A DNA stretch of 64,000 bases from Amphiscolops sp. MND2022 (taxonomy: Eukaryota): NCBI GenBank assembly GCA_964187785.1, contig OZ076409.1, forward strand, positions 19,966,001-20,030,000, written 5' to 3'. Every line of letters begins with the position of its first letter. The stretch's first letter is position 1. Under the pieces are notes generated by a model, which was not told the DNA's origin, searched no databases, and saw only the letters and a program-made list of their open reading frames with translations. The translations under genes were made by a program, and so were the position numbers. This document shows, in pieces, positions 29,980 through 61,968 of this stretch.

Positions 29980-31140
29980 ACGCTGTATGCGAAGGTCCCG
30001 AATGTTTGTGTCTGTTGCGAAAGAGCTCTATTCAAGCACACTTTGCTGACTCTTTGCTGATAAAATTGAGGTTCCACATTCTATGTCATATGTTCTTCGG
30101 AATGTATTTTCTAGTGATGGTAAAAGAAATTTGTGTAGAACTTGTTGGACTTTTATTCTCAAAGAAGAACTTCCGCCTTTAGCCGTGATGAATGATTTGT
30201 TCGTAGATCCGCTACCAGTCGAATTGCAAAACTTGAATGCGCTCGAAACCCTTTCTACGAAAATCTCGAGCGCTCTCACTTTGAAATCGTTTCCCCACAT
30301 TAAAGGTATGCCTCCACAGGAAACCTATACAACTTCGAAAGATAACGTGTCACTTTTTCAGCAGAAAACGTGGAAATTACGGCAAACACGGTGACTGCAA
30401 CAGTTGTCGACGTCTACAACCCAATTCAAGAAATTTCGCACTTCGACGAGAACGCATTCTCTCCGTCGTCCCTGGTCAAAATCAGCAACCAAGACCAATT
30501 TACGAAAAAAAGTCGAATACCAAGCTTTCCCGAAATTGTTACCTACAGGTCGTTCTGGTTGGCATGCAGATAGGCGTAAAAAGCTGTCTGCTTCTCAATA
30601 TTTCTCTTCTCGGTTACTCCATTACTCAACTCGGGAGCGGGACAAAACAGCCGATTTTAAACGGGACAAAACAGCCGATTTTCAAAATAGGACAAAACAG
30701 CCGATTTTAAAACAGTACAAAATCGCCGATTGGTAAATATAAAAATCGCCGATTTTGTCAATGCTTAAGATTAGCAGTCAATAAAATATTATTATAACGT
30801 AGTCAGCTATGTTCACATACTCCTAGTGCCCTAAATGCAGGAGCGAAGCGAAGCGGAGCGACGTGCCATATGGCCATGCCTCAATGTTGCTACTTGGCGA
30901 AGGGAGCGAAGCGACCGAGCCATACAACAAATTGAACCTCTTCAAATAAACCAAGTTCCATGCATATCGGCTGTAACAGCACTCACTTTGTTCCGTTTTG
31001 AAAATCGGCTGTTTTGTCCCGTTTTGAAAATCGGCTGTTTTGTCCCGTTTTGAAAATCGGCTGTTTTGTCTCGTTTTAAAATCGGCTGTTTTGTCCCGCA
31101 TCCCTCAACTCGTTTCGCAAGGTTCACAGATTACGTTACA
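29980..31140 (+). pseudogene. Helitron/Helentron Rep N-terminal remnant, interrupted by a MITE
   Basis: PNVCVCCERALF, LCRTC..PPLAVMNDL..PLPVELQNLNALE and AFPKLLPTGRSGW..RRKKLSASQYFSSRLLHYSTR|FAR (frame rejoins after removing 30634-31103). These are typical of Helitron RepHel N-terminal regions. Confidence 0.7.
30634..31103. mobile_element. Mutator-like MITE with GGGACAAAACAGCCGATTTT arrays; carries core-1
   Basis: Inverted repeat arrays, GG...CC ends, perfect 9-bp TSD CTCAACTCG (30625-30633, 31104-31112). Confidence 0.85.
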
Positions 31141-32279
31141 GAAGCTCCAAATCTCAATGTATCCATACACAGGACTACCAGCCTGAGCAATGTATAGATG
31201 AGCTTGAGGTCGAAACTGCATTTACCAAACATTCCCAACTTCGTTCACTTTTTCACAATTCCCTTAATACTCTCTCTCTTCAACAGGTATCGACAGTGAG
31301 CATAATCTGACATCATCGAACTCAAAATTCATAAAATACGTCACTATCGAAGTGTTTGCCATGTGTTTATAAGCTTCATATTTGTTTCCAAACTATCGTG
31401 TGACCTAGTGGAAACCATGCGCGATGTTAACAATTACTGTGCAAGTGTCTGAGGTGGTTACCAAAACGATATCTTAAGGTGGGGTGGATATATTTTCACC
31501 TATAATAAACTGATTAATCGTAGAGTAGTTACCAATTGCATCTGTTATAACCAATAATTCTTTTCTAAATAAGCTGTTATAAAGCATTACTGTTTTCTAA
31601 GTTAGGATCATTCGTTTGCATTGAATTATTTATTGATTGACACGCCGGAGAATAATTAACAAGGGATCCTAAACCTTGTCGATTACCCGAGTCGATGCTC
31701 GGTCTTCCTCAGAGCAGTCTTTACAGTTAAAATGTTGACTTTGATCCTTCCGTTCAATCAGGTTACCGTGTTGTATTCGAGATTGACTAAAGTTGATTTA
31801 AATCAACTTCTGCGAATGCTTCAACATTGTGCGACTTTTGTTGGTGTTGTCTTTGTTTGACAGAAAGTGCAGACCATTATCTGTTCAATTTGAGAACTGT
31901 CATTCTAACTATCGATTATGTGTGACGCCAGCTTGGATGTAACAGGTCAATCCGTATCTCTTTGCGATTTGGTGATTATTTTTGAAAAACAAATAGAAGT
32001 TCGCTTCGTCTGCTCTCATTTGCACATTCCCAGTTTTCGCACAAAGATTTGAAGGTAATGGGGAACATTTTCACAGGTTGCTTCCTCTAGAATTTCGTGA
32101 GTTGAAGTCTAGTTGGAGAAACCAAAAAATTTGAAGTCGGCGATTTAAATAATTATTCTAATAACTAATAATTAACAAACTCAAACTAACGAAAACATGT
32201 TGAAGTCACGAAAATTGTGTAAGACGATCAACAAAGACATTATCTTGCCATTTTCTGCTTTTTCGGTTATTAATTAGCT

Positions 32280-34949
32280 TTTAAAAAACTGGTATGAAAT
32301 TTTTAACAATGTCTAAAGCAAATAAATTTTAGTTCTTCTTGGCATTTTCTCTTTTCCAGAGAGAACCGTTGATAATTTTCTGTCGTTGCAACTTGTGGAG
32401 GTCATCATTTTCGAAAACACTAGGAAACAGTAATGAAATGCCACTAACTGTCAAAAATTGAGCTTTTTCAGTTAGTTTGAGGACATTTAGACAATTTTTC
32501 AACAGAAAAACATCAGTTTCTCATCCGAGTGTTTTGAACATTTTTGCTTGGAAGCATTCAAAAGCTATGAAAATTGGGAATGTTTCAGCTATTTCGTGCG
32601 ATAGCCCATGCTTTTGAGGCCTTCCTTAGCTAAATCTAAGAAAACAAGTCTTAAATAGCTTGCCTGACGGAAACGAAACGAAATCACGGAAAAAGTCGGA
32701 ATATAAAAACTACCAATGCTTCCAGAGCCGAGAAACAGAACAGACAACCCATCAAAGAGGGGCTAAGTTGGTTATACACATAAACCTCGGCCCCACAGAA
32801 GATATAACCATGCGAAGCAGCTGTACAGACAGCGTATGGGTTGACTGCAAAATAGAAAATGATTTCATCCTAGTGGGTGCATTCTTTTGCAAACCCATAG
32901 ACTGACTCATTTCATGAATCACGGGACAAAATAACCCCACGATTAGAGCTAGCCACAAAAATCGGAATATAAATTGTTATACTGGGAGATTTGAACGAGA
33001 GACATCACGTAGGATGATAACAAAATGGTACAAAGCTAGAATATATGAGAACGAATAATCTGAACATCCTTAACAGCGAGCAGCCTATTATTCTGTGCAT
33101 TGGAGGTTCCAGTAAAATCGACCTGGTAATAGAGCGACACCACAGTAGACGATGAGATCGGACTCTTCACTGCGGCTCCAAACCGAGGACACCTTCCAGT
33201 GATCACAACCTTCAATTTCCAACAACAAAAATGTCAGAGATAAATAGGATAAAGACTTACTGGAATTTAATCTAGGAAGAACACGTCATCGGCCGAATCC
33301 GGATACACTAAGGCAAACAGTTTAGACATGATGAACAGAGCTAAAGACGAAGTAAATTCAAGGAAAACGATCTCAATTCACAGCAAAGGTTATTTTACAG
33401 AAACATTATCGCAAATGTCCGAAGAGCTCAGAGAAAAGTTGAAAAAAAGGTCAGACCCATTCAACAGCTTACAGTACGAAATCTTTGAAAATCGATTCAA
33501 AAGAAAACTATTAGTCATTTAAAGCTGCTATCCACAAAGAAACGGCCGAACAACTGAACTATGACAGGGATCTTTTCTGGAATTTGGAAACAAAGAACTC
33601 AACCGGTCAGCCTGTTTAAAAAACTGGTATGAAATTTTTAACAATGTCTAAAGCAAATAAATTTTAGTTCTTCTTGGCATTTTCTCTTTTCCAGAGAGAA
33701 CCGTTGATAATTTTCTGTCGTTGCAACTTGTGGAGGTCATCATTTTCGAAAACACTAGGAAACAGTAATGAAATGCCACTAACTGTCAAAAATTGAGCTT
33801 TTTCAGTTAGTTTGAGGACATTTAGACAATTTTTCAACAGAAAAACATCAGTTTCTCATCCGAGTGTTTTGAACATTTTTGCTTGGAAGCATTCAAAAGC
33901 TATGAAAATTGGGAATGTTTCAGCTATTTCGTGCGATAGCCCATGCTTTTGAGGCCTTCCTTAGCTAAATCTAAGAAAACAAGTCTTAAATAGCTTGCCT
34001 GACGGAAACGAAACGAAATCACGGAAAAAGTCGGAATATAAAAACTACCAATGCTTCCAGAGCCGAGAAACAGAACAGACAACCCATCAAAGAGGGGCTA
34101 AGTTGGTTATACACATAAACCTCGGCCCCACAGAAGATATAACCATGCGAAGCAGCTGTACAGACAGCGTATGGGTTGACTGCAAAATAGAAAATGATTT
34201 CATCCTAGTGGGTGCATTCTTTTGCAAACCCATAGACTGACTCATTTCATGAATCACGGGACAAAATAACCCCACGATTAGAGCTAGCCACAAAAATCGG
34301 AATATAAATTGTTATACTGGGAGATTTGAACGAGAGACATCACGTAGGATGATAACAAAATGGTACAAAGCTAGAATATATGAGAACGAATAATCTGAAC
34401 ATCCTTAACAGCGAGCAGCCTATTATTCTGTGCATTGGAGGTTCCAGTAAAATCGACCTGGTAATAGAGCGACACCACAGTAGACGATGAGATCGGACTC
34501 TTCAATGCGGCTCCAAACCGAGGACACCTTCCAGTGATCACAACCTTCAATTTCCAACAACAAAAATGTCAGAGATAAATAGGATAAAGACTTACTGGAA
34601 TTTAATCTAGGAAGAACACGTCATCGGCCGAATCCGGATACACTAAGGCAAACAGTTTAGACATGATGAACAGAGCTAAAGACGAAGTAAATTCAAGGAA
34701 AACGATCTCAATTCACAGCAAAGGTTATTTTACAGAAACATTATCGCAAATGTCCGAAGAGCTCAGAGAAAAGTTGAAAAAAAGGTCAGACCCATTCAAC
34801 AGCTTACAGTACGAAATCTTTGAAAATCGATTCAAAAGAAAACTATTAGTCATTTAAAGCTGCTATCCACAAAGAAACGGCCGAACAACTGAACTATGAC
34901 AGGGATCTTTTCTGGAATTTGGAAACAAAGAACTCAACCGGTCAGCCTG
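32280..34949. repeat. Near-perfect 1335-bp tandem duplication
   Basis: 32280-33614 repeats at 33615-34949 (identical ORFs at 32660/33995 and 33328/34663). One substitution seen (33170 vs 34505). Confidence 0.95.
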
Positions 34950-36000
34950 TTCCTATGGGTTGTCTAATAGACAGCGAAAAAGATCTAAACGCAACGGAAG
35001 AAATATTCAACTACCTCCATGAAGTATTTTTCAGGAAATCACATTGCTGAAACGAACTCCAATGAAAACTGGAAGATGCCCGTGTTCGTGCGATCGCCCA
35101 GAATACGAAAGCGACGCTCTCAACTACCTCATTCAAGAGAATAAAGTTTTTTTGGGTCAAGGAAACGTCAAATGGTCTGGTGAAGCATTGGATCGAGACG
35201 GAACACACCCTCTTACGTTGAAAAACAGTTCCCAACTTCAGATCTTCATTGACAATTCTGTTCAATCTCTGCGTAGAGAAAGGTAAATACATCTAGAATG
35301 AAGGTGAAGTAGTTTTCCTACGGAAAGAAAGTAAACATTACTATGAAATGTCCAGCAGCTATAGACAGATCAGCATTACATCGTAAGTTGGCAAACTGTT
35401 CAAAAGAGTCCCACAGAACAGACTACGAAAACATTCGAAAGCAGAAATGCTGCTCGATGATCAAAGTTTTAGGAGAAAAGGAGCACGTGTCGTTACATTT
35501 ACAGACTTATCAACTTGAAGTCGGAGACAGATAAAAAAAATTGAGCACAATCGCACTGTTCAAGGATTTGGAGAAACCTTACGATTCGGTATGGCTAGAG
35601 GGATTGTTGTATAAATTAATGATCTCCAGCACGTCAGGGAGATTCTTTGAAACTTCAAGAAAGCCGCAAGACAGTGTACGGTCACCGCTGTTATTCATCT
35701 TTTTCTGCGGAGACATGTTCAACGGCTGTGTCGTTAAACCCTTTGAATAAACGCAGATTACGCTACACTCGGAACAGCAGCCGAGACAACGGAAGAAGCA
35801 AATCTGACAGGAACGAAGAAGATCGGAACCAAAAGTGACGAAAGACTGAGAAAATGACGTATCAAAATCTCCAGCAGCAAAACGGAGTTTCTGTTCCCTG
35901 GACCGCGAAAAAGTGACATTGTGAAACGCCTGAAAAACTCTAGATGAAATTAGACGATCGAAATCTTCAAAAACCCTTGGCATAAACGTTGACGAGATGC
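32640..36000 (+). pseudogene. Highly degenerate LINE ORF2 (APE/RT) remnant
   Basis: ILGD, SKIDLVI, HLPVIT-like APE fragments, then LFKDLEKPYDSVW and PQDSVRSPLLFIFF RT motifs, with many stops. Confidence 0.65.
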
Positions 36001-38498
36001 TACGTTAGAGCATTTGCCATGTACTAGGGCTGTATTAGGTTCAAATCCATCTCAACTCACCATTGTTGGGCCTTGAGCAATTCCTTCATTCCTAGCTCAG
36101 TGGTATGGTCAGAGAAAAAGAAACCACGCACAGAGAAAAACAAAATAAAAAAGAGCAACGGTGAGCATCAGACCTGTGACCTTAAGCAAGTCACTTTAAA
36201 ACCACAGTCTTTAGCCATTGTTTTACCACTTGGTTGCAAATATGGTACCATAGCTAGCTATGGGCGGATAGTATCCGAAAGGGCGCCGACTTAGAAAAAC
36301 TGAACTGCTCATTCGGCGTGCCGAACAAAATATTAAAACAATGCTTGTGGACAAGGTGAATCAGCTTCTATTAATTTGGAAGATTTCAGAGGGTCAAGTT
36401 GAACGGTGTTTTGGTGTAATCCCTACTAGTAACCACTAGAACTAACTTCTTTGTCGGGTAACTTTTTAAACCTTATTTGCTCTGCAAATCACACAACTCT
36501 AAGATATGGTCACCAAGTTTTCAAAGAGTGAACAATACGGTTATATTTCAAAAACGAGCACAACGGTGGATTATCAGTATTGACGATTATCATTAACGTC
36601 TCATTGCACTCAAGCTATTCATTACATCGTATCAACATCCGATGGAAGATTTGATTTTTCTGAATCAGCTTGTGAACGATCTTTTCAATAAGAACACTTC
36701 CAGTGTTACCAACTTGAAGCCGCCTTCTAGCTATTATCTCGGACGAATGATTTGAAAATCACATTAGACCCATACGAGCTTGAAAAAGCCGGAAAAACGT
36801 TTGGCATTCGAGCGGACATCCCAAGAAACCATCATCATTTCCTCCGTTGTCGACTGGGGTTGGCGGGGCACCCCTGAATTAACAAGCGCCTCTCCTAAGA
36901 AATCGATTAGAAAAATTACTCCTAGGAAATCGATTAGAAAAATTATGATATTTCAGTGTTTGAATCTGCAACAATTTTCGAATCGAAATTCGAATTCTTA
37001 GCAGCCGATATCTTCAGTTCATACAATGCTCTGGATCGATGCAGTCAATTTTTAATAACCTACGGCCTTCGAAACACTTTCAACTCAAACTGTAGCAAAG
37101 GGATACTTAAACTTTGTCCTTGTAGCGGAACAAAAAGAATGATAGGAACTAACTGTCTTTTTCTGAATAAACAGAGTTCAGGACTGTCACCAGACATAAA
37201 ACCACAGCAAGTGTGTAACTTCCCATATTTGTCTAAACAAATCTGTTGTCCAGAAGTATGTGGTTGTTGTTTCGGGGATTCGCAGATGAACAGGAAGGGA
37301 TACAAATTCTCTGAAATGGAATTTAATCATTAGTGTTTCACAGCTTCGAATTCAAAATCGTGTGCCATGCTTTCGCAAATGTATACGATTAAATAAAACT
37401 CGTATTACATTAAATAATCCCAATATCAGACACATGTATTGGTTGTGGTTATAAGACTCGGTCATCTCCTTTTGTGACCCCTCCAAATCAACCTACGTTA
37501 AAACGAGTGGTTGGATCACTTCATTGCTGAATTTAAGGCAATAGGGAAAGGCGAAAACACTTTCAACTGACTGATATCGAATGTAAGCCAGATCAAAAAT
37601 CAGAAAATTTGAATTAATTTACGGAACTATGGCACTAGATTTGTTTTCCGAGCTACCGTAAGTCACCAACCATCGCTGTAATATGAGCATCGATTTGACT
37701 TCGAGTTAATAGAAACCTATTTGTCGAAACAGTATCATATAAAACATTTCATACAATGATCCTCGGATATTCTTGCTCGTGATAGAGAACTTTGTGGAAA
37801 CTTGTTATTCAGACTTAATCGCCTGCTGTATGCATGTTAATCATGAATTTAGGAAGTTAATTATTGCGACAGCATCGACTTCTGATAAAACGTACCAGAA
37901 AGTGCCTGGTTTTACCAGATTGCGGTAACTACTGATGATGACAAATGTCGACTCTTTCTTGTTCGTCAATCGCTAATGTTGTCCAGAAAAATAACTCCAC
38001 TCTTTCGAACAATGTGTTATATAATGACTTTGACCACTATCTGTTGATTACTAACTTATTAACCGTGACTAACTCTTAACTAACTGTACTCATTTTCAGA
38101 CTATGTTGAATAAAAGCTTCACCCTAAAAGCCTGTTTTCTATACAACCATTTTATTCAACCAAAAAAAATTATTCAACGTAATCAGATGCGATTTCGCAC
38201 ATTGAAGCCGTACACAGCAGCCAACCAACTAATCACTGACTCTGACTTCGCAGTTTTCCTTCCCGAATTTCAATATCCTTACGACACCTGGGGGGAAAAC
38301 TTGGCACGTCATTGATTTTCTGCCCACCACAGGTCAATTCAAGGTAGTGGTTTTATTCATTGGTGCCAATTGCTTGTTCGACAAAAACGGAAACAGCGTT
38401 TCATCGCCGATTGACGTTGCAGAAGTTTTCAAAGCTCGCAGACCGTTTGGTGGCATTAGCAGACAAAATGGTTATCAAACACAAAAAGGTTTCTCAAT

Positions 38499-38538
38499 GT
38501 TAAAACGTTTTCAATTCCAAGGAGTCATCATCAGTAAC
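38499..38538 (-). ncRNA. Type I hammerhead ribozyme motif in Penelope pLTR
   Basis: gtta-CTGATGA-T-gactccttggaatt-GAAA-ACGT-T-T-taac: intact core, stems I and II, and palindromic AACGTT stem III. Confidence 0.65.
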
Positions 38539-38539
38539 T

Positions 38540-38897
38540 AACAAGACGAGAACGTCCAAAGTCGGCGCCATATCTAAGGTTCAAAAAGCGCAAAAAAATT
38601 TTTTGGAAAAAAACATGAATTTTTGAAAAAAAAATTTCTTTCAAAAAAAGTCGCATAGTGCCGAAAAAAATCCAAAGGGGGACCCTTTGGGCACGTCCGG
38701 TTGTGTATGTTTCCTTGAAAAAGTAAAAACTGAAAGGGGGACCCTTTGGAGTAAAGTTTGCCTTCTGCGCAGAATTGCAGAATTGTAAGAAAAGTGGACC
38801 ACTCAGAGTGAGATTGTCAACTGAAAAAAACAAAAAAAAAAAAAACTACTCACTGTAAGAGTCGGGCTTTTTTCCTTAAGGGAAAAGGCGCCGACTA
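38540..38897 (-). mobile_element. HINE-like element inserted in the Penelope pLTR
   Basis: Family termini. The empty site at 50341-50357 shows insertion into an A/T run without a real TSD. Confidence 0.8.
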
Positions 38898-40217
38898 AAA
38901 ATACACAGTAGTAGTAGTAGTAAAAGGCTTAAATTACACATTGTGTACTAAATATATTACATGCATCAGAAATTAAAATAAGATAAACAATTTTTGGTTT
39001 TAGCAAAATGCGCAACAAAAAACTTTTTTAGATTGGGTCTGAATATATTAGGGTCTGTCATGATATCGAGAGTCGTATGCCTCTGAATGAAGTTTGCATA
39101 TTTAGTTGCTCTGTTGAAAAAGTTTGATTGGCATAGTTTTGTTCTGTAATATCTTGGTTTGAACGTAACTTTCGCGTCTCGCCTCAAACTGTATATGGTG
39201 GCACTCTCGATATAAATATGATCCCAAACTGGAAAATCCATAATGCCATTGACCATTTTATTGAATAGCAATATATCTTTAAGCTATAGAGCCATTTTGA
39301 TCGGAAGTAGCTCTGTTTTCAACAGCCTTGATGGATAGTCTCTTTCTGTTACAATCCATTTGCTGACATGATTTTGGAATCTCTCCATCCTCGATATATC
39401 ATTTGAAGAGGGAAACCATGCTTCAGATGCATAGAAGAGCACTGGCATCAAAAATTGTTTGTAGACCCTGAGTTTGGTCCTCATGTCCAGTTTATCAGGC
39501 AGCTGTCTCTTCAAATCCTGAAACAATCCATAGCAAGTGGAAAGTTTTTTGGAAATATGTTGCGACCATTTTAATTTCTCGTTAAAATAGACACCAAGAT
39601 CTTTAACTAGTTCTGATGGAATAATTGTATCATGGGCACATTTGATAAACAACGTTGAAGAATTTGTTCCAAAGTCCAGAAAATTCGTTTTGATAGAGTT
39701 AAATTTCATAGCGTTGTTATCGCCCCATATCAGACAGTTGTTCAAATCCAATTGAAAATCAGTTAAGGAAATATTATTTTTCAGCTTGCTATCGTCAGCG
39801 TATAAGTATAATATTGAATTAATACAAGACTGAGGTAAGTCATTTATAAAAATGACAAATAAAAGGGGACCCAAAATAGAACCCTGTGGCACCCCACTGG
39901 TTACAGATTGATAATCGGATTCCGTACGTTTCGGCACAAGACGTTTCGGCAACAAGATGGCGGAAGACGTTTCGGCAACTTTTTGTTGCCGAAACGTCTT
40001 TGGTGCCGAAACGTCTTTTTCTAAAGTCAAATTTTGGAAAAATGAAATGAAAAGAATTATGTACCGAAAACATTGATTCAATTGATGAATATATGAACAA
40101 CAATAAATGAATTGAGAAAAAAATAACAAGAACAGAAAGTTGAGTTGTTATTATGAACTGAAATGTTGAGAGCTGTTATTATGAAATGAATCAGTAAACA
40201 AGTGAATGTTTCAGAAG

Positions 40218-41119
40218 GGTTACCAGTCACTTGGCTTAATACCACTTGGCTTAATTTTTTCGTCGAGTCATTTGGCTTAAAAATTTTAAGCCAACTGACC
40301 ACAAAATTAAGCCAACTCCATTCCAACTCAAGGAATAAATATGTCAACTCCCGGAAATATCATAATGTGGGGCATATGGGGTGGGCGGAAATAGGTCGAA
40401 GGAACGGGATCGAAAATCAGAGTTAGTCCTCAGGTCGACATACCAAATTTTTTGAATGGGATCGAAACAACTCGGATCGAAATTTTTAAAACGTAGTCAG
40501 ATATGTTCACATACCCCTAGTGCCCTAAATGCAGGAGCGAAGCGAAGCGGAGCGACGTGCCATTATGGCCATGCCTCAATGTTGCTACTTGGCGAAGGGA
40601 GCGAAGCGACCGAGCCATACAACAAATACGATAAAATTCGACCGCATTCCATTCGATCCCAGCAATTCGATCAAAAGGTTCGACCTCTGTCCTTTCGACC
40701 AGAAAAATTCGACCTGTTTACAGCCACCCGGGCATATGCGGTGTATGCACGCTCGCCCTCACCGGCGCAAAGACCAGCTCCCACTACGATCGCTTCGCGA
40801 TCTTCGTTCCCGCTAGGTCTTTGCTCCTGTTCGACCTCGCTTAGCAAGATGGGAATATAAGCGGCCCCAAGGGGCCGCAGGGCACTAGAGGAAATGGGGA
40901 CATATCCGAGGTGTACTTGATATGACATGTTATAATAATACGCTGACTACGTTATAAAGATAAATTTGTGTTTTCAACTAAGTGGTTTCAAGTCAAATGA
41001 CTTTAAGCCAAATGACCAATACCCGAGACACTTGGCTTAAAAAAATTAAGCCAAGTGACCAATTGTATTGAGCCAAATGACTTTAAGCCAAATGGCATTA
41101 AGCCAAGTGACCATTTACC
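40218..41119. mobile_element. MITE family A (TTAAGCCAAGTGAC arrays, core-2)
   Basis: GGTTACCAGTCACTTGGC / GCCAAGTGACCATTTACC ends, 8-bp TSD TTCAGAAG. Confidence 0.85.
40379..40729. mobile_element. MITE family B (TCGAA arrays, core-1) nested in MITE A
   Basis: GGGTGG..GGTCGAA / TTCGACC..CCACCC ends, 9-bp TSD GGGCATATG. The empty site is seen in the 46873 copy. Confidence 0.9.
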
Positions 41120-41144
41120 TTCAGAAGTTTGGAATTGTTTCGAG

Positions 41145-42658
41145 TCAATGGAATTGGTGCACGCAAAATGAAATATCCTTCAGCAGCTGGGTGGCGTCGA
41201 TCGTGCCTTCCTTGTACGTTTTCCATAATTTAATTATACCAGATTGAGTAGTTTGAGACTCCTTGCGCTGATACCGGTAAACTTGTCCTTTGCTCAACAA
41301 CTCAGTAGTGATAATAACCAGTTTGGATTCATCCTGCAACAGGCGAACGAGTACGTAAAATTGTAAGGAATTACGACCAGCTTTGCTATTTAAGCGGCGA
41401 TGATAACCTTCAGCGTCATTGTTGGTGCGAATAGGACGATCGTATACATTGACATCATTAATACTTCAAATTGAATGCGATAACCAGGTTTTAGCGTAAT
41501 AATCGAATAAGGCAGTAAGGGCTGGATTGGTAGCAAACGAATTAGCAAGCACTTCATACTGCTCCATGACACACACACAGATGGTAGGAAAATAAGTCCC
41601 ATCAGCTTTCGACACACCAATTTAGTTCCTGTGTCGTTTTGATAACGAACACCTAATCCAAGCTCAGCAACTTTTCCATAAATTGCCTGACAGTGATGAA
41701 ACGCACATCCTTTCATTCTGACATTGGGATACACTGAACGGCACGCAGTCCATACTGATGCCTCAAAATCTGCAACAATCTCCAATGGCGAAACACCGGC
41801 TAATTCGTTAAGCTTCTGGAGAACTACAGCATAATCAGACTTCCGACGACCGGAGATCAAAACATAAAGTAAAGGAACTTGCTTATACTTGCTACCGCTG
41901 GAAATAAAGGCATGAATTATCCAAAGCTGTCTGAAGGGTTGCTTAACTACCTTGAAGGTGGCATCCACATACCAGTAGTCAGCTCTTCCTAAAATATGAA
42001 GCTGCTCCGGTGTGGCGAATACCAAGTGTCGGCGGTCCTTAAACTTGATATCGGCTTGAAGAAACCCAGCCACTTTCGACTGATCAATGTCAAAAAAGAG
42101 TGAAAAAGGTTCCCCAGGACGATCACGTTGTCTTGATCGGTTAATAGCTCGTGCAAGGGCCGACGTGGCAACCGGTAAATTTTCTTTTGCAATTGTTGAC
42201 TCAGCAATTGTTCCAGCTGATTCGAAGACGTTTTTTCTTCCCCTGGCCTGACCCGAGCGATAAACGATTGTTTTCGATATCTTTGAGAGATCAGGAGGAT
42301 GGTTGTGATGGCTTGATCCATGCTTGATTTCATCTCCCGTCTGGGCGACTGTTGCATTACAATAGGATTTCGAGCTCCGCTCCGTACAACGCCAGTATGT
42401 CGTACTACCGGACTTATTTTTCCTTAAGACCGTATAGGAAAAACCTTGATTTGAGACCAACATATCATTTCCTCTTTCCGTTCCGGATTTTAATATTTCA
42501 TAATCGATTATATCTGGGAGCACCACTTCACGTGGCGGTGGATCTTGCAACTGACCAAATACGTTGGATCGTCGAAGCTCCGAAATAACTATGCTCTCTG
42601 TTGCGTCCTCCTCATCACTACTGGGAAAATACTCCTCAAAGATGATCATATCATCCAT
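41145..42658 (-). pseudogene. FLYWCH + MULE DDE transposase with one frameshift at an (AC)n tract near 41570
   Basis: GFSY..YWRC..C..HNH (FLYWCH), YVDATFK, ADFE and GCAFHHCQA. RTNNDAEGYHRRLN continues in the shifted frame to the stop at 41145. Confidence 0.9.
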
Positions 42659-46872: not shown

Positions 46873-47426
46873 GGTTACCAGTCACTTGGCTTAATACCAT
46901 TTGGCTTAATTTTTTCGTCGAATCATTTGGCTTAAAAATTTTAAGCCAAGTGACCACAAAATTAAGCCAACTCCATTCCAACTCAAGGAATAAATATGTC
47001 AACTCCCGGAAATATCATAATGTGGGGCATATGCGGTGTATGCACTCTCGCCCTCACCGTCGCAAAGACCAGCTCCCACTACGATCGCTTCGCGATCTTC
47101 GTTCCCGCTAGGTCTTTGCTCCTGTTCGACCTCGCTTAGCAAGATGGGAATAAAAGCGGCCCCAAGGGGCCGCAGGGCACTAGAGGAAATGGGGATATAT
47201 CCGAGCATTCCTTAATGACATGTTATAATAATACGCTGACTACGTTATAAAGATAAATTCGACAAAATCTGCCACGTGTTTTCAACTAAGTGGTTTTAAG
47301 TCAAATGACTTTGAGCCAAGTGACCAATACCCGAGACACTTATCTTAAAAAATTAAGCCAAGTGACCAATTGTATTGAGCCAAATGACTTTAAGCCAAAT
47401 GGCATTAAGCCAAGTGACCATTTACC
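46873..47426. mobile_element. MITE family A copy
   Basis: Same termini and core, 8-bp TSD GTTTAGGA/GTTTAGAA. Confidence 0.85.
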
Positions 47427-47852
47427 GTTTAGAATTAATAACATTTGGAGGGTCCCCTCTGGTGCTATATTTTATTTAAACTGACTGCATTGTACTTAAC
47501 TTCTGTACTGGTACCATTGTTCAATTTTTTAAACATAACGTCAGAGAAAATTTAATTCTTTCTTCTTCTTTCTTCTTCTTCTTCGGCCTAGTCCTCGCCA
47601 CGTACAGAGCTTCCATTGTCAGTGATTTGTTGACGTTCGTGCATCGGTCCAGTACTGTCGCCGTCACTTCGCCTGTTTTAACTGCGCATTCACCAAAATG
47701 CCTTCCCAGTGGCAATGACTTCCTTCTGTGTTCTCCCAGTCTAGTGATCACATGTCTGGCCGTTTGGCCGACATAGCGGGAGTGGCATCCCGGACATTCA
47801 ATTTGGTAGATCACTTTACTCGAGAGTTCTTCAGGTATTGGCTCCTTCATTA

Positions 47853-48056
47853 GAGTGCATAGGCAAGCTTAATTTGCTCAAAGCGCACTTTGTGCTTTGA
47901 ATGCCTCGGATTCCACGACCAAACCTTTAACCGTGCAAAATTGACAAATTACGTCATAAGTCCCGGATTCCACAAACAAGCATTCCACGGACAAGCAGCG
48001 GAATTTTCGTGTCCCGGATTCCACGACAAGCAGCAAAATAGTTTGCCTATGCACTG
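47853..48056. mobile_element. Tc1/mariner-type MITE within the Penelope ORF
   Basis: TA-GAGTGCATAGGCAA ... TTGCCTATGCACTG-TA, with internal GGATTCCAC repeats. Confidence 0.8.
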
Positions 48057-50858: not shown

Positions 50859-51363
50859 GGCTACGTGGAATCAGGTCAAATGAAATAGATCTAAGAGAGG
50901 GGGCAAAATTGAGATCTAAATAAATTGATCTAAATAATCAGGTCTAAAATTCTCTTCTAATTTGATCTAATTTGAGAAAAAAAGTAAGTCATTTAGGATC
51001 TAAAACTAAAAATTGATATAAAGTATAAAACGTGCCTCGGATATGTCCCTATTTCCTCTAGTGCCCCGGGGCCCTTGGGGCCGCTTATATTCCCATCTTG
51101 CTAAGCGAGGTTAAACAGGGGCAAAGACCTAGCGGGAACGGAGATCGCGAATCGATGGTAGTGGGAGCTGGTCTTTGCGATGGTGAGGGCGAGCGTGCAT
51201 ACATCGCTAATGCCCCAAATTATATTTTCGCTTTCAGAACACATATTACATCATAATGGGGTTAGACCTAAGTATTTTAGATAAAATTAGATCTGAAAGT
51301 TAGACCTAACAGTTAGATCTAATTCCATTAGACCCAAGCATTTAGATCAAAGGCGTACACTCC
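50859..51363. mobile_element. MITE family C (GATCTAA arrays, core-2 in reverse)
   Basis: Inverted GATCTAA/TTAGATC arrays. The 9-bp TSD CATCAGAAT sits at 50850-50858 and, beyond the LTR insertion, at 57457-57465. Confidence 0.75.
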
Positions 51364-51364
51364 C

Positions 51365-54300
51365 TGTTGGCGCCAGTCATCAGAAGGCAGAGAAACTCAA
51401 TTCAGAACTTGCTGGTTGAGAAACAAAACTTAAACTCCAAAAAACTTAGATGAAAATTTGAAGAAAATCCTCACATTGCAAAAGGGGAAAACCCCCCCCC
51501 CAAATGGGTTTTCTCAAAGTCTCTTAGTCATAGAGCCATGAAACTTGGCACACATACGCAGGTACATAACCCAAACACACCGGCCAAGTTTCAAGGTCAT
51601 CCACCCATTATAACCCCTTTTACCCCCCACATGTGTGTTGTTCAAGGTCATTGAACCAAAAATGTAAACATTGCTATTTACCTATATGACCACATTAGAA
51701 TGTAACTCTGTTGAAATTACTGATATTTACTTTGTGTAAACATGCTTTAAAGCCCACCTAACCAACATGCTAAACCCACACTATGGTTTGTTTACATAGC
51801 CAATAACTTTAATAATTCACTTAAATATCATTTATTTATACTTCATATTTCAACTCATATTTATCGAATAATTGTAAACGATATGTATACCATTGTTAGA
51901 TAGGCACAAATTGATTGGAACGCTGTATTCAAGTTGGGTCTTAGGACCATTTCAATTCTCAATTCATTTCTTCACCTCTTTTCGACTTTTCGCCAAAGAC
52001 TTAGGGCGACTAAGTTAGTTACTCTCAACTTGTGGAGAGTTGGACGCGTTAAGAGACAAGGAAGAAGTGCAATTCGGGATCATTGGATCCTACTAAGTCA
52101 AGATACAGTCCTTTTAATCTAAGAAGCAAGCAGTGTTCGGTAACGATCCGCAGTGCCGAGCACCGAATTCAGGGCGGCGTAAAGTTTGGTCAATTGAAGG
52201 GATCAAGCAGCCGTTACATTTGGTCCGCCGACCCGGACGTCATCATTGGGCGGACATCACATTGGGCGGACATCATCATTGGGCGGACATCAACAGTTGG
52301 AGTGGACATCAATCTGGGTGGACACTACAAGAGGAACGTCGTCTTCATTGTGTGTGGATAGCATTCGCGGTGGAAGACACGTGAGCAGTTAGAGTCATCA
52401 AACGGGTGACACAGCATCTATCTGTTCAAGTAACACGAAGCTTGGAAAAAGCTTCCGTGCTGGTTTCATTGGCAAACCAGAGAGCTGGGAGGACAAGCCT
52501 ATTCGTAGGGACCTTCCAAACCTAGAAGTGGCAGCAGGTGATCCTGTTCGCACAGCAATCGAAAAGTATTGCAAGAGTCGTCGCATTCGAACGGAATCGC
52601 GACAAGTAGCTGAGACGACTATTCACGACGAACGAGAACTGTGGAGACTGGGTCTACAGTTGGTGACTGGAACTCTGGGAAAGTGTACACTGGGGCTTTG
52701 ATATTGGACTATTGGGCGATTTGGAACTGGATTGGTTGTGTACTCTGGGAGTTGGGCTTTAGCAGCACTCTGGAGGCAAGTGTGCTTCAATTCCAGTTTG
52801 GGACGAGTTGTATCCTTGGGAAACGTATTCCTAATTGAAAGCAAAGGTTTGAACTAAGACGTCGCTGCAAGCATATCCACCAAGTAAAGCAAAAGGATCG
52901 AGTCATTGGGCGAGGTCCACCGAAACAATCAAATCCGTCAAAGAAGGCAAGCATAATTGACATTTTGGGTTGATTCTTCAAGAATTGGCGATTGATTACT
53001 GGGTTGAGCAGTTGACATTTCAGATCTAACAAATTGCTGAGTTTGGGAAAAGTGACAAAGTCGACAAGAAACTATCGTGTAGTCAGAAAGCCCTCAGTTA
53101 AACACAAAGAGCAATCTGAACAAATGAAAGCCAGAAAGAAAGAAATGCTCGAGGTGCAGCATCCTCGAATGACAAATGTATTTGATCAAAGAAACACAAA
53201 TCAGAGTCAAGAACTGATGGACCTCAGATCAAGAGATTTGGAAAATGATTCCGACTGGTACGTGTGGCGCTTTTATGTGGACGCTGTGGCCACCCAAGTT
53301 GGAAGACTACGGACTCTGATTAAAGAGTTGGATGACAAGCTGGACGAGCAAGGCGCTATTCTTCGCAAAGGAGAATTGAACGATTGGGTTTTCGAATATC
53401 GCGAGAATAAACAAGCATTGTTGTATAACGTAGATCTCATGTTGGACCTAACAAATAAAGAAAAGCAAAGACAGCTCAATCGAAGTGTGACTGAATGGGA
53501 AGAATTCTTTGCTGAGTTAGAAGCCAGCTGGGGATATTGGTTCCCAGATGTAAAGACATTGATGAAGGGTCCAAAAGATGAGACAGACAAAACGAAACTT
53601 CGCCAAGAGGCAAGTGGAACCTCCACAAATGCGGCAATGAGATGCACTCAAACGACGAAGCTCAAGCAAAGTAGCTTCAACCCGACAAAACGCAATTGTT
53701 CATTGGAAGTAGCTAGTGAAATGAAATCACTGGCACAATCAAGCAGGGTAACTGATGAAGAATGCCGGGTTGTTGGAGCATCCAACCCCTCTGATGTGAT
53801 TAAATCAATCAGTGATGTGAAAGTGTTACCCGAAGAAAGCAACAAAGGGTCAGTCAAAGCAACCTCAAGGAGCAACCAAACAACAGCTAGTTCTAAGTCA
53901 TCAAATGCAAAACGAATACTTCTTCTAGAATTGGAAGCAATGAAGAAACAAGATGAAATTGATGAACAGCTAGCTGCAGCAAGACGTAAAGCTGAAATTC
54001 GAAGGAAGCAACATGAAATTGATACCCTCACAGAAACACTCGAAATTGCTAAACTCGAAGAAAGCGCGAGGACTAAACAAATTGCCAACCGAGAAATTGA
54101 GTTAGCGCGAAATGAAACGCAGCTAAAACTGACACAATCACAGAAAGTGACAAAGCAGTTGCAACCATGCAAAGTTCCGCAGGAATGTTATCGGACTTTC
54201 AAGGCAATCTCGAACTCAACAAAGCCTCTTACAGGAGCGGAACTGCGTGGGCAAAACCCTCACTCTCGGAACAACATGAATGAAGTGGCGAACAAAGAGT

Positions 54301-57300
54301 CACACCTGAGAAACAACAAAGAAGCCTGTTTTGGGCGAACTGATTCAAAGAGTATTGTTGGATCACATTGGCGCTCGAACCATAAAAGCGTTGAAAGTAG
54401 TTCAATGATGAGAACTGTGAAGCAAACTCAAACAGAGCGAACTTCGAGCAAAGAAAGCTCAAGGTATCGGAATGAATCGCTGAAAAGAAAAGACGAACGT
54501 ATGTGCAAGCAAGAAGAAATGGCTTTGCTCAAAGCTCTTGACTGTACAACAAAAGGAAAGTGTACAGTGAAAAAATGGAAACCTGAGCAGATGAAGTGTT
54601 CAGACAAGTGTTCAAACCATGGAAAGTTGCAAGAAAAAACTATCAAACGTGAAGCGCTTGAAGACTCAAATATGACAAATGCTGAAAGTGATGTAAACAA
54701 AGAAACCTCGAAGCGTCTCACAGCAGAATGGATGAGGAACTGGCCAGAAATATTCGTTGTGGACGATGGCTGGCAAGACTTTCATTCAAAAACCCTCCTC
54801 GTGGATACAGAACAAGTTTTGGAAGAAGAGATTCACTTGGTCATGAGTGAGCACTTGGTAGTGCAAACAGAAGAGACCTTGGAATACACAATGACTGAAA
54901 CTATGAAAGAACATCGAAGCTTAGCCTTCGCATCAAACAATGAAACTTCGGAAGAAATGAGTGTGCAATTGGAACTGCTGCAAGTGATGGTAGAAGTTTC
55001 CACCGTACTACAGGACGTGCGACAGGGGAAACTATTCCAAGTGACAGTGTTCTATGACATTACTCTACTCCTTGAAGAAGGAAACAAATGTTATGAATTT
55101 GTCAAAAGTTATGACTTTGTGAATGAGCAACGATATACACTGCCAGAAGACTTGAATGAAATCGTCATGTATCAAAAGCTATGCCACGTTGCAATGAAAC
55201 ATGAAAAACCCGCGAAAAGCAATGCTAAAACGGAAACACAAGTCGTGAATGCAACCTTTGGAAAGAAAACGGATTTCGACTTCAAGGAAAGTCTTTTAGA
55301 AGAAACTATCCCGAGTCATAGTAGTATATGGAACCCTTGGAATGGTAATGGAAACTCAGGGATGGACGCAGTGGCACAAGCTAACGTCATTGACAAAACA
55401 CAATTGAGCAAAGGCCACCGCAAGCAACTGAAGAAAAGATCTTGGAAGATTGAACATAACTGGAACCTGATACAGGAAATGGAGGAAGGAGCTCAGTTGA
55501 ACATGAATGGAACACCACAAGATGACACACTTTGGCTACGTGAGTTCAGAGACAACTCATCAGTGTCAAGAACGGAAATGTGTTCTTTGAAAGTACCAAC
55601 CACAGCAAGTTGGAGCGACGGGTCTTGCAATGGGCCGGCTGCACTTTTCAAGACAATGTGGACTCGGCATGGGTCTTTTGGTAAATTGGAAGTTTTTGCT
55701 GATCTATCGGAGCCGGTTAGAAACCTAGATGAAAAGAAATTGAAGTTTTGTGGTGAGAGAAGCACAGTGAATCTCTACAAACAGAAGCGGAAGCAAAACT
55801 CCACGGCATTGCAGTTGTTTGGAGAAAACTCGGATGTAGCTACGAAAAACGACGTGTCTGTAAGCAAAGAGCAAAATGCAGCGCTGCGACTGAGTTCACA
55901 ACACAAATCCCCTCCTATTGGATGCAAAGAGAGCCTTGAACACAAAAGAAAAAACTCCAGTCGCCGTAATGTTGGAAACTCTCTTTATCTATTGGTGATG
56001 ATGATGGATGATTCAATAATCTCTTCCGAACGCCAAATTGAAAGCTTGAGTATGGAACGATTAGAAAACGAACACTCTTTGACATATCTCCCCCGCGGAC
56101 AGTCAACTTTGATGAGGAAATATGTAGCAGAGCAAAACTTGGGAAGCTGTCTGGAGACATTTTCGACTCATCTGGAAATCTTTTCTTTGGATGTTGAAGT
56201 AATTATGGAAGTCGAGTTAAATGTACTGAAGCAATTTTGTATCATACCTGTTAAAGGTTCAAGAGAAAAGGAATTGGTTGAACACAATAAATGTCGGACG
56301 TCGACGATCAAGTTTGGGATAATTGGGAAAACTATCACTTCAAATGAGACAACAGTTTTTTGGAATATTTTGTTTTATGTCAACTTGTCGAAAACAACTG
56401 TATGGTCAGTGAAATGGATTATGAGCTGGAGAAGCATTGCAGTAGAGAAAGAACACAGCAAACAACTGGCAAACAAGACTACGGTACAGAATTTCTCAGA
56501 AAGACAACGATGACTGATGACAATCTCAGACCACCAGTAGTGAGACTGGCACCCATGTTCTATGAAAGTGTTTTTCCGGAGAAAAACAGGGCCGGCAATG
56601 TTGGCGCCAGTCATCAGAAGGCAGAGAAACTCAATTCAGAACTTGCTGGTTGAGAAACAAAACTTAAACTCCAAAAAACTTAGATGAAAATTTGAAGAAA
56701 ATCCTCACATTGCAAATGGGGAAACCCCCCCCCCCAAATGGGTTTTCTCAACGTCTCTTAGTCATAGAGCCATGAAACTTGGCACACATACGCAGGTACA
56801 TAACCCGAACACACCGGCCAAGTTTCAAGGTCATCCACCCATTATAACCCCTTTTACCCCCCACATGTGTGTTGTTCAAGGTCATTGAACCAAAAATGTA
56901 AACATTGCTATTTACCTATATGACCACATTAGAATGTAACTCTGTTGAAATTACTGATATTTACTTTGTGTAAACATGCTTTAAAGCCCACCTAACCAAC
57001 ATGCTATACCCACACTATGGTTTGTTTACATAGCCAATAACTTTAATAATTCACTTAAATATCATTTATTTATACTTCATATTTCAACTCATATTTATCG
57101 AATAATTGTAAACGATGTGTATACCATTGTTAGATAGGCACAAATTGATTGGAACGCTGTATTCAAGTTGGGTCTTAGGACCATTTCAATTCTCAATTCA
57201 TTTCTTCACCTCTTTTCGACTTTTCGCCAAAGACTTAGGGCGACTAAGTTAGTTACTCTCAACTTGTGGAGAGTTGGACGCGTTAAGAGACAAGGAAGAA

Positions 57301-57452
57301 GTGCAATTCGGGATCATTGGATCCTACTAAGTCAAGATACAGTCCTTTTAATCTAAGAAGCAAGCAGTGTTCGGTAACGATCCGCAGTGCCGAGCACCGA
57401 ATTCAGGGCGGCGTAAAGTTTGGTCAATTGAAGGGATCAAGCAGCCGTTACA
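51365..57452 (+). mobile_element. BEL/Pao-derived LTR retrotransposon; LTRs 51365-52218 and 56599-57452 (854 bp)
   Basis: TG...CA LTRs with ~6 differences, 5-bp TSD CTCCC, PBS TGGTCCGCCGACCCGG at 52221, purine-rich tract before the 3' LTR, and C-terminal RPPVVRLAP motif. Confidence 0.92.
53034..56513 (+). CDS. 1159-aa ORF of the LTR element (first ATG 53124); Gag-like coiled coil, no intact protease/RT/IN motifs
   Basis: Long uninterrupted ORF with a Ser-rich plus coiled-coil segment like BEL/Pao Gag. Only vestigial FVVDD and LEVFADLSE. Confidence 0.7.
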   Translation: MLSLGKVTKSTRNYRVVRKPSVKHKEQSEQMKARKKEMLEVQHPRMTNVFDQRNTNQSQELMDLRSRDLENDSDWYVWRFYVDAVATQVGRLRTLIKELDDKLDEQGAILRKGELNDWVFEYRENKQALLYNVDLMLDLTNKEKQRQLNRSVTEWEEFFAELEASWGYWFPDVKTLMKGPKDETDKTKLRQEASGTSTNAAMRCTQTTKLKQSSFNPTKRNCSLEVASEMKSLAQSSRVTDEECRVVGASNPSDVIKSISDVKVLPEESNKGSVKATSRSNQTTASSKSSNAKRILLLELEAMKKQDEIDEQLAAARRKAEIRRKQHEIDTLTETLEIAKLEESARTKQIANREIELARNETQLKLTQSQKVTKQLQPCKVPQECYRTFKAISNSTKPLTGAELRGQNPHSRNNMNEVANKESHLRNNKEACFGRTDSKSIVGSHWRSNHKSVESSSMMRTVKQTQTERTSSKESSRYRNESLKRKDERMCKQEEMALLKALDCTTKGKCTVKKWKPEQMKCSDKCSNHGKLQEKTIKREALEDSNMTNAESDVNKETSKRLTAEWMRNWPEIFVVDDGWQDFHSKTLLVDTEQVLEEEIHLVMSEHLVVQTEETLEYTMTETMKEHRSLAFASNNETSEEMSVQLELLQVMVEVSTVLQDVRQGKLFQVTVFYDITLLLEEGNKCYEFVKSYDFVNEQRYTLPEDLNEIVMYQKLCHVAMKHEKPAKSNAKTETQVVNATFGKKTDFDFKESLLEETIPSHSSIWNPWNGNGNSGMDAVAQANVIDKTQLSKGHRKQLKKRSWKIEHNWNLIQEMEEGAQLNMNGTPQDDTLWLREFRDNSSVSRTEMCSLKVPTTASWSDGSCNGPAALFKTMWTRHGSFGKLEVFADLSEPVRNLDEKKLKFCGERSTVNLYKQKRKQNSTALQLFGENSDVATKNDVSVSKEQNAALRLSSQHKSPPIGCKESLEHKRKNSSRRNVGNSLYLLVMMMDDSIISSERQIESLSMERLENEHSLTYLPRGQSTLMRKYVAEQNLGSCLETFSTHLEIFSLDVEVIMEVELNVLKQFCIIPVKGSREKELVEHNKCRTSTIKFGIIGKTITSNETTVFWNILFYVNLSKTTVWSVKWIMSWRSIAVEKEHSKQLANKTTVQNFSERQR

Positions 57453-57952
57453 CTCCCATCAGAATCATTCGTTGCTTCAACTGTCAAAAGTTTGGACACC
57501 TTAGTGGAATCTGCAATTTTAAAACAGCCTGTAAGCATTGTAGCGAAGAATATAAATTGACAACTGCAAAAACAAAGGATCAGAAAGTAAGTTCTTAAAC
57601 TGTAAATGTACAAATGACACTGATCCACCTAACTGTCCGATTTGCATCAAACGAAAGCAAGTGGTTTATGACGCTCGAAGGCTTACAGTGGGAAACCTGA
57701 ACGATTGCCACGATGGATTCTGAAAGAAGAATATCATTCTTACAGATCAGTATTTGCGGCTTAAGCCACCATTGCAAACTTGCAATAGATGCGTATCTAG
57801 AGAAACATTAACCAGACGTGATTTTCTTGAATGAAACCAAAAAAAGTACCTGAAAATGCTTTTACAAACTATACAGCCCTAAGTAGTACTTCAAACGAGA
57901 TGGCCGGTGAAGTTGCTTTATTATTCCGATACAATGTGGCGCTCGCCCAAAT

Positions 57953-58482
57953 GGTCACAATTCATTTGGCTTAAATTCATTTGGCCTTATTTTTTCGTCG
58001 AGTCATTTGGCTTGAAACTTTTAAGCGAAAAGACCGCAAAATTACGCCAACTCCATTCCAACTCTTGGAATAAATAAGTCAACTCACGGAAATATCAATG
58101 TGGGCATATGCGGTGTATGCAGGCTCGCCCTCACCGTCGCAAAGACCAGCTCCCACTACGATCGCTTCGCGATCTCCGTTCCCGTTGGGTCTTTGCTCCT
58201 GTTCGACCTCGCCTAGCAAGATGGAACATAAGCGGCCCCAAGGGGCCGCGGGGCACTAGATGAAATGGGGACATATCCGAAGAGTGCTTGAAATGACATG
58301 TTATGATAATACGCTGACTACGTTATATTAAAAAACTCGACAAAATCTGCCACGTAAATTCAACTAAGTGAGTTTAAGCCAAAACCCGAGACACTTGGCT
58401 TGAAAAAATTAAGCCAAGTGACCAATTGTGTTAAGCCAAATGACTTTAAGCCAAATGGCATTAAGCCAAGTGACCCTTTACC
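57953..58482. mobile_element. MITE family A copy
   Basis: Perfect 8-bp TSD GCCCAAAT, TTAAGCCAA arrays and core-2. Confidence 0.85.
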
Positions 58483-61434: not shown

Positions 61435-61634
61435 NNNNNNNNNNNNNNNNNNNNNNNNNNNNNNNNNNNNNNNNNNNNNNNNNNNNNNNNNNNNNNNNNN
61501 NNNNNNNNNNNNNNNNNNNNNNNNNNNNNNNNNNNNNNNNNNNNNNNNNNNNNNNNNNNNNNNNNNNNNNNNNNNNNNNNNNNNNNNNNNNNNNNNNNNN
61601 NNNNNNNNNNNNNNNNNNNNNNNNNNNNNNNNNN
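61435..61634. other. Assembly gap (200 N)
   Basis: Run of N. Confidence 1.
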
Positions 61635-61719
61635 ATCTGGTTTTCTACTGTAGAATACCAGGTTGTAGAATTCTGGAATTGAAAAAAAAAAACAAAAAAA
61701 CAATAATGGAAGAATGATG

Positions 61720-61968
61720 CAAAATATAAAACGTGCCTCGGATATGCCCCATAGCCTCTAGGGTCCCGCGGCCCCTTGGGGCCGCTTATGTTCTCATCTT
61801 GCTAAACGAGGTCGAACAGGAGCAAAGACCCAGCGGGAACGGAGATTGTGAAGTGATCGTAGTGGGAGCTGGACTTCGCGACGGTAAAGGCGAACGTGCA
61901 TACACCGGATATGCGTCACATTTCAGATTTAGATCTTATTCCTTTAGATCTTAGGCGGTGGATGATCC
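61720..61968. mobile_element. Partial MITE family C copy (core-2 + TTAGATC repeats)
   Basis: Matches 51029-51220 followed by TTAGATCT repeats. The left part is missing. Confidence 0.7.

Follow-up and report, generated by a model that had tools for sequence, protein, structure and literature searches.

Foldback MITEs of Phantom/Muta MULEs, such as those of Muta1 in Aedes aegypti (PMC5225508) and of the Phantom group (PMC6446971), have tandem subterminal arrays, TSDs of 8 or 9 bp and a FLYWCH+MULE gene; the elements described here have such arrays and TSDs, and a FLYWCH+MULE transposase gene is present in the window. Muta1 derivatives have common TIRs and differing interiors (PMC5225508), whereas the arrangement found here is the reverse, a common interior under differing TIRs. 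The Phantom-like, non-autonomous foldback element Tm1-HH of Meloidogyne also has a conserved hairpin-bearing interior, but it belongs to one TIR family and its motif is the host histone hairpin (PMC3169594), whereas the core family reported here occurs under four or more TIR families and has no Rfam match. Among rolling-circle elements, the Helentron target has been stated as T^TT (PMC4067079), insertion at 'TNAT'^'T' is reported for fungal Helitron2-like elements, and multiple termini, at the 5' end, for Helitron2-like elements (PMC5148889). In the literature searched, no animal was described in which unrelated MULE TIRs enclose the same core, although such a description may exist in Repbase reports, supplements or subscription papers. 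MITEs are grouped into families according to their ends, and what lies between is generally regarded as inert.

In the window (the whole 64,000-nucleotide stretch of DNA analysed), the MITEs around the cores belong to the Mutator/Phantom-type foldback, cut-and-paste (MULE) class. Their termini are GG..CC, their long TIRs are built from tandem subterminal repeats, as in MULE/Phantom foldback MITEs, and TSDs of 8–9 bp (8–11 bp expected for the class) flank all six elements of families A–D, one of them with a mismatch. Host C (30634–31103) has 26-bp GGGACAAAACAGCCGATT arrays, GG..CC ends and a 9-bp TSD (CTCAACTCG). Host A1 (40218–41119; TTAAGCCAAGTGAC arrays, 8-bp TSD TTCAGAAG) lies within the 3' part of a transposase-bearing MULE, and host D (40379–40729; TCGA arrays, 9-bp TSD GGGCATATG) is nested in A1, at the tip of its core. 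The other members of family A are A2 (46873–47426; 8-bp TSD with one mismatch, GTTTAGGA/GTTTAGAA) and A3 (57953–58482; 8-bp TSD GCCCAAAT), the latter inserted in a decayed LINE with endonuclease/RT matches at 58498 and 59755. Host B (50859–57456; TAGATCTAA arrays, 9-bp TSD CATCAGAAT) is split by an LTR-type element (51365–57452, direct repeats of 854 bp) and consists of 50859–51364 and the last bases, 57453–57456. The transposase-bearing MULE (39926–42828, minus strand, GTTGCCGAAACG arrays) encodes a FLYWCH + MULE protein (ORF 42658–41390; Pfam PF10551 and PF04500), for which a homologue search returned seven unnamed proteins. This element shows to which superfamily the hosts belong. Its arrays are unlike those of hosts A–E, its TSD was sought and not found, and, nested MITEs apart, it holds no core of its own.

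A first core, core-1, is found on the minus strand in host C (30796–30932, ending CTACG|TT) and in host D (40490–40627), where, on visual inspection, it breaks up the loop separating the innermost inverted array units. The two copies agree at 135 of the 137 aligned bases (98.5%), with one 1-base indel, and their ends match to the base on both sides, whereas the arms of C and D aligned no better than shuffles. The sequence-only reading, which had placed core-1 in two MITEs with unrelated arms, is confirmed on this point. Such identity across unalignable arms with different terminal motifs requires recent lateral movement, and near-identity under unrelated arms is evidence against a module kept by descent.

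A second core, core-2, is present in five copies, two of them reversed, as had been claimed, with pairwise identities of 83–97%. Three A-type copies lie on the plus strand in A1 (40730–40953), A2 (47019–47246) and A3 (58097–58324), and two copies of a short type lie on the minus strand in B (51029–51220, ending GCACG|TT) and in a host E (61730–61921, the most decayed copy). The A-type has an extra outer end (GCTGACTACG|TT), and the first bases of the A1 copy are found at approximately 40363–40378, to the left of D. The assignment of core-2 to two families holds for A and B; the family of host E is uncertain, since it has TACAAACTGG-type units on both sides, only two TTTAGATCT (GATCT) units, both on the right, and an N gap on the left. 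The cores of families A and B are about 92% identical, whereas their arms are unrelated, with an alignment no better than shuffles. For the part shared by all copies, two sites group A3 with E and none groups B with E, and the core-2 tree did not reject a single origin in family A (p-AU 0.16), which counts against repeated entry of the core.

It had been proposed that a conserved cis-acting core was kept by one ancestral MITE lineage while its transposase-binding arrays were replaced. The four arrays had been considered unrelated, and this is the case for C with D and A with B, but the right arms of D (TCGAA) and B (GATCTAA) are partly related, with 25 matches in 30 aligned bases, more than in any of 200 shuffles. 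B and D combine distantly related right arms with distantly related cores that are homologous at both ends and in the same orientation; descent explains this equally well, which counts against lateral entry of the core, and array turnover on a conserved module may hold for this pair. The core of family A is also better kept than its arms between A1 and A3 (differences at 10/181 core and 46/304 arm positions, p=0.001), less clearly so between A2 and A3 (13/181 and 37/304, p=0.09). However, the C and D cores differ at two bases under unrelated arms, unit lengths and terminal motifs, the A and B cores have remained similar despite unrelated arms, and the core substitutions look neutral. Descent is improbable as a general account, and as the sole explanation it is refuted, unless array replacement outpaces 2% sequence divergence.

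The cores, of about 135–230 bp, have in common an end of about 45 bp consisting of GGGCACTAG, a small stem-loop (7–9 nt region) and then ACG|TT, and the GGGCACTAG..CTGACTACGTT motif is present in both core-1 and the family A copies of core-2, as previously noted. On these sequences, core-1 and core-2 appear to be two subfamilies of one family. The diverged copy suspected near 8148–8183 was recovered as a relative of core-1 (8118–8183, plus strand) with the same terminal base, CTACG|TT, outside any recognisable foldback MITE; a profile made from the two core-1 copies only matched 8134–8183 with E=1.9e-9, the best value in the reversed-window control being 0.72. This relative is referred to as X. 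A borderline match at 37516–37558 (plus strand, E=0.056) may be a free copy of the end module that has decayed. The terminal base is identical in C, D, X and A1–A3, and B and E have the homologous base. CTAG does not mark the core end, as similarity among the cores continues for 25–35 bases past it. A canonical Helitron (5' TC, 3' CTRR, insertion between A and T) was rejected for the same reason, and because CTAG is not followed by T in any copy. Among outside contigs, one from another study breaks at exactly 40490; of the five left-side loose ends listed for the core-1 module, however, only one coincides with the terminus, the others lying 7–21 bases inside it.

Judged from the flanks, every full core is preceded by T at its 5' end and followed by TT at its 3' end (T^TT), and the cores sit near the host centre. 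None of the six cores tested has a target duplication longer than 4–5 AT-only bases, and neither an empty host site nor an autonomous partner bearing the core ends was found within the window. The cores resemble the non-autonomous HINE, DINE-1 and Helitron2 elements (PMC4067079, PMC5148889) in lacking a TSD, in their T^TT flanks, in having a conserved motif and a short, imperfect stem-loop before G|TT, and in their stacked termini: a second terminus is stacked on the first in family A, whereas the multiple termini of Helitron2-like elements are at the 5' end (PMC5148889). The spacing of motif, stem-loop and G|TT also parallels that of a control family in the window with the full HINE architecture, including a 10-bp inverted-repeat pair. 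In contrast to those elements, the cores have no subterminal inverted-repeat pair (the reverse complement of the conserved 10-mer matches at most 6–7 of 10 in the first 60 bases), the window copies have no microsatellite, and the cores are concentrated in MITE centres. The longest perfect end-to-end inverted repeats are of 4–7 bp in all six cores examined, where a pair of 11–15 bp is expected of a HINE. The HINE label was withheld because the subterminal pair, one hallmark, is missing.

We tentatively favour, as plausible but short of probable, an explanation in which the cores are a non-autonomous HINE/Helitron2-like passenger that repeatedly entered foldback centres and was multiplied by MULE transposase. 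Such a passenger would be short, with fixed ends and two subfamilies, and would move by a single-strand rolling-circle route with a Helentron/Helitron2-type RepHel acting in trans. Several founders of foldback MITEs may have received it in their AT-rich centre, perhaps through single-stranded DNA exposed in the loop of an extruded foldback; MULE transposase would then copy host and passenger jointly, and most copies would afterwards decay neutrally. The sequence-only reading had offered a parasite hitchhiking in MITE centres as its second possibility, which is consistent with the T^TT flanks, the sharp common ends, the copy outside a MITE and the absence of a target duplication; its ssDNA/rolling-circle nature is inferred only, the cores having no covariation and no linked partner enzyme and core-1 being unstructured. 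In favour of the passenger, GCGAAGC/GCGGAGC motifs and a C-TT-G loop, which are stable as DNA mini-hairpins, all lie on one strand of the cores. The window also contains a decayed ORF with DUF6570, a domain presumably tied to Helentron RepHel, but this ORF has no link to the cores. A binomial enrichment (p about 1e-4) does not amount to evidence of targeting, since the sample is weighted by amplification of the hosts.

Of the eight clear core copies, seven are situated within array elements or next to them, which favours a rival reading in which the core is immobile: MITE interior would move from one MULE MITE to another through Pack-MULE-like capture or gap-repair template switching, and would be kept since a GC-rich spacer stabilises the long foldback or raises excision. 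The better preservation of the family A core relative to its arms, significant for one of the two comparisons above, agrees with this, as do the heterogeneous captured interiors of Muta1 derivatives (PMC5225508). The interior of the Stowaway element Ost35 contains an enhancer and can boost transposition under foreign TIRs (Ost35/14T32, PMC3660474), a likeness limited by the fact that this swap was engineered, whereas the cores are known from sequence alone. MITEs also insert into cores, D into core-2 and, in an outside contig, an A element whose end is joined to the core-1 module. However, capture should cut at varying points, whereas the C and D copies match to the base at both ends, the ACG|TT end is common to X, A and one outside contig, and X lies outside a recognisable MITE. 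We consider passage of an immobile interior the main rival, a genuine possibility though on balance an unlikely one.

The cores could also be a passenger of another chemistry. Candidates are a Crypton without its own tyrosine recombinase, a HUH element of Replitron-like type, or a class still to be described that shows some preference for its sites. Terminal repeats are absent from animal Cryptons, for which non-autonomous derivatives are known (PMC3212892). Both ends of core-2 bear the near-direct repeat CATAT[CG]CG, which in E is perfect over 9 bp and in family A is followed directly by a hypervariable patch of 5–6 nt (after CATATCCGA), features that recall the direct repeats and fuzzy right ends reported for Replitrons (bioRxiv 10.1101/2022.12.15.520654). 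Against this, the 5' copy of the repeat is absent from core-1, the Replitron abstract names plants, algae and protists (bioRxiv 10.1101/2022.12.15.520654), and neither a tyrosine recombinase nor a Rep domain was found among the 92 ORF translations scanned, so we regard such a chemistry as rather unlikely. The ATons of Aedes aegypti are likewise short, non-autonomous and AT-flanked, with an unknown partner, but they have TIRs of 15–17 bp and insert at AT (PMC3422177); the cores have neither such TIRs nor AT-specific insertion, and this identity was rejected. No match to either core was obtained by BLAST against phages and plasmids. Pattern scans returned 0, 1 and 0 loci in viral contigs, two in metagenomes and one in prokaryote genomes, and all four were put down to chance, since visual inspection revealed no similarity in their flanks.

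A structured RNA or a tRNA-derived SINE is extremely improbable. Core-2 contains a GTTCGA word, which we take to be B-box-like, and shows moderate folding as RNA (z between −0.9 and −2.4 for most copies), but there is no Rfam match, tRNA, covariation, TSD or constant tail. Rfam gave no match at gathering score in the whole window, only two chance-level matches outside the cores (E up to 5), and ARAGORN no tRNA; both a tRNA-SINE or structured ncRNA and, by eye and Rfam, a ribozyme were rejected. Core-1, described earlier as structured, did not prove to be so (z +0.8 and +1.2 against shuffles). Folded as DNA, the minus strand of core-2 gave z values of −3.3 to +0.4 for the five copies (best copy, −3.2). 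Only in family A are its three proposed hairpins all intact; of the other copies, that at 51029 retains the long stem and that at 61730 the GC hairpin. No covariation was seen, with a compensatory change in none of 52 predicted pairs across the five copies; stems are not depleted in changes (13/44, p=0.53 against an expected 35%), whereas CpG transitions are overrepresented (8/44, p=0.006), as in CpG decay. The imperfect short stem-loops TATGT-GA-ACATA and GGAAATG-GGGA-CATATCC, located about 8–10 bases from the core end, where a HINE/Helentron would have a 3' palindrome at 8–35 bp, also lack covariation. Two sequencing runs contained small shares of the sequence, with no RNA run among those listed, and the uncovered parts were uninformative.

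Insertion of one element into another is known for Tx1 in Tx1d DNA transposons and Tourist into Tourist, which target one family by sequence (PMC6719617); here the hosts have no common sequence, and targeting is putative. We consider it quite unlikely that a tiny single-strand-mobilised element recognises structure, homing into foldback MULE MITE loops of any array type and amplified by their transposases as a parasite of parasites, while also serving as a spacer that lets MITEs persist. Recurrence of a single core family under unrelated ends would mean either that structure guides a small element to foldback centres or that MITEs gain from the interior. In repeat libraries for such genomes, families would then be wrongly merged or split. 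In either case the question of why some MITEs amplify would become testable through simple swaps in the existing yeast MULE assay.

Core-1, the inner segment of the foldback MITEs C (30634-31103) and D (40379-40729), differed between these two hosts at 2 of 137 bases and by one indel, confirming the sequence-only reading that the same core lies inside two MITEs with unrelated arms. Copies of core-2, the segment found in hosts A1 (40218-41119), A2 (46873-47426), A3 (57953-58482), B (50859-57456) and the uncertain host E, were 83-97% identical to one another. The arms were compared in 24 between-family pairs, each against 200 shuffles permuting 2-base blocks. A single pair exceeded all 200 shuffles, the right arm of D with that of B, and it stood out again (z 6.0; the remaining 39 pairs, z <=2.7) when the scoring was relaxed and the E flanks were included. 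The proposal of unrelated arrays therefore stands for C versus D and A versus B, which did not exceed the shuffles, but not for B and D, whose arms, judged by their alignment, are diverged relatives. The shared core under different arms is a real observation. Since near-identical cores lie under unrelated arms in C/D and A/B, plain descent is ruled out there, and descent alone is an improbable general explanation.

Hosts A1-A3, B, C and D are the six elements in the window with GG..CC ends, inverted arms composed of tandem units, and target duplications of 8-9 bp. B is interrupted by an LTR-type element (51365-57452) with 854-bp repeats, a 5-bp TSD (CTCCC) and a 1159-aa ORF without a Pfam match. 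A FLYWCH+MULE ORF (42658-41390), accompanied by arrays of its own, belongs to a transposase-bearing MULE (39926-42828) for which a search found no TSD. This element sits within a LINE, and the LINE stretch 39276-39916 recurs at 42826-43466 (99.5%). These ends, arms, target duplications and ORF match the Phantom/Muta type as known from the parts consulted of PMC5225508 (Muta1), PMC3169594 (Tm1) and PMC6446971, and the hosts are therefore additional Phantom/Muta-type elements.

Core-1 and core-2 shared homology at each end, and this was clearest over a module of about 45 bases. A profile of this module recovered its 8 source places and nothing else below E=1.8 in the window. With a profile from the C and D copies alone, the diverged copy anticipated near 8148-8183 was found (X; E=1.9e-9), together with a borderline additional copy at 37516-37558. 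The end of X reads ACGTTTCGGAAC (8178-8190), which lacks one base of the unit making up the arrays of the transposase-bearing MULE. With the module written last, all full cores are preceded by T and end in ACG, then TT; no flanking duplication longer than 4-5 AT-only bases was found (0/6 cores tested). Family A has a second, outer end, and its otherwise similar copies have a hypervariable patch of 5-6 nt directly after CATATCCGA (approximately 40912-40917, 47207-47211 and 58283-58288), different in all three copies and located where B/E-type cores stop.

The ends are sharp, common to the cores and not accompanied by a TSD, which suggests that the core is a unit with termini of its own, possibly, though we propose this tentatively, a rolling-circle-type passenger. 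In their T^TT flanks, their stacked termini and an end of the form motif-stem-loop-G|TT, the cores are similar to HINE/Helitron2 elements in the portions used of PMC4067079 and PMC5148889, but they have no subterminal inverted-repeat pair, and are therefore at best HINE-like in their working and not classed as HINE/Helitron2. The control for these ends was a separate HINE/DINE-1 family with full architecture (13071-13560, 38536-38900, also 11199-11523 and 18246-20750), bearing a 10-bp subterminal inverted pair (AGTCGGCGCC/GGCGCCGACT), a 5' hairpin, a 3' stem-loop, a TTG|TT end and internal tandem units. A passenger of other chemistry, for which sections of a Crypton source (PMC3212892) and a Replitron preprint are cited, is unlikely. 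ATon was rejected on comparison with the part of PMC3422177 consulted.

Among ten array families delimited by eye in the window, a core was present in five (A-E, E being uncertain). It was absent from the transposase-bearing element, from 47955-48040 and from three further foldback array elements (9068-9275, 9722-10478 and 6299-7140), at which no TSD with GG..CC ends was found. Free core copies numbered one or two per 64 kb, and small array elements held 152 (9.3%) of the 1638 ATTT/AAAT sites outside cores in the window. Host amplification raises copy counts but does not by itself explain cores in half of the founders; we infer from this share and the few free copies that targeting of MITEs or an advantage is required. 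Nested and TE-targeting elements are already known (PMC6719617, in the part consulted). X may, from the sequence of its end, adjoin a remnant of the transposase-bearing MULE's family.

Cores lay near the host midpoint (distances to the ends 162/171, 111/102, 145/180, 143/158 and about 171/144 bases). All counts come from the 64-kb window and 23 short contigs of two low-cover runs from two studies (10 and 13), the contig figures being drawn from listings that give 16 pieces and leave off 8 more, together with 13 loose ends. The stretch 40502-40565 was matched most, by 7 of the 16 pieces, with several different flanks. One contig held a nearly complete core-1 breaking exactly at 40490, and four further breaks among those listed fell 7-21 bases inside the module end. 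Two contig flanks resembled MITE array units by eye, and in one contig the core-1 module was joined to an A end. Among the joints listed, none bypassed a core, at a cover too low for absence to count. Swapping of interiors between MITEs, with selection, for which passages of PMC3660474 and PMC3310237 are cited, is a less likely source of the shared cores than the passenger, though a possible one.

The cores had been described as structured, which held for the best core-2 copy, the only one clearly beyond shuffles (best fold, minus strand as DNA; z -3.2 versus -1.6), but not for the other core-2 copies, core-1 or X. Two-sided changes were absent from predicted core-2 pairs (0/52, five close copies); 13 of 44 substitutions fell in stems, which make up 35% of columns, and CpG transitions were enriched. 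The core-2 copies are undergoing neutral decay, and five close copies tell little of the master sequence. That the core is an RNA is very hard to credit. Hairpin-bearing interiors of Phantom-like MITEs are already known; the literature covered, with Repbase, Dfam and some supplements outside its scope, yielded no account of a single core family shared by four or more TIR families. Searches of prokaryote collections gave no true match to the cores.

The window is AT-rich (GC about 37%) and transposon-dense, with an N gap, and has the look of animal DNA. A decayed, frameshifted ORF at 29216-30633 contains a region that matches DUF6570 below the cut-off (Pfam E=0.004; high Atlas confidence). We take DUF6570 to be tied to the Helentron type, and the ORF is probably a Helentron-type remnant. 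MITE C is located at its broken end. A stretch of about 1335 bp is duplicated exactly and in tandem at 32280-34951 (99.9%), which is possibly an assembly artefact. At 36938-37333, 47521-47868 and 48711-49001, thymidine kinase and GIY-YIG matches were weak and below cut-off, and a PHD finger was above it.
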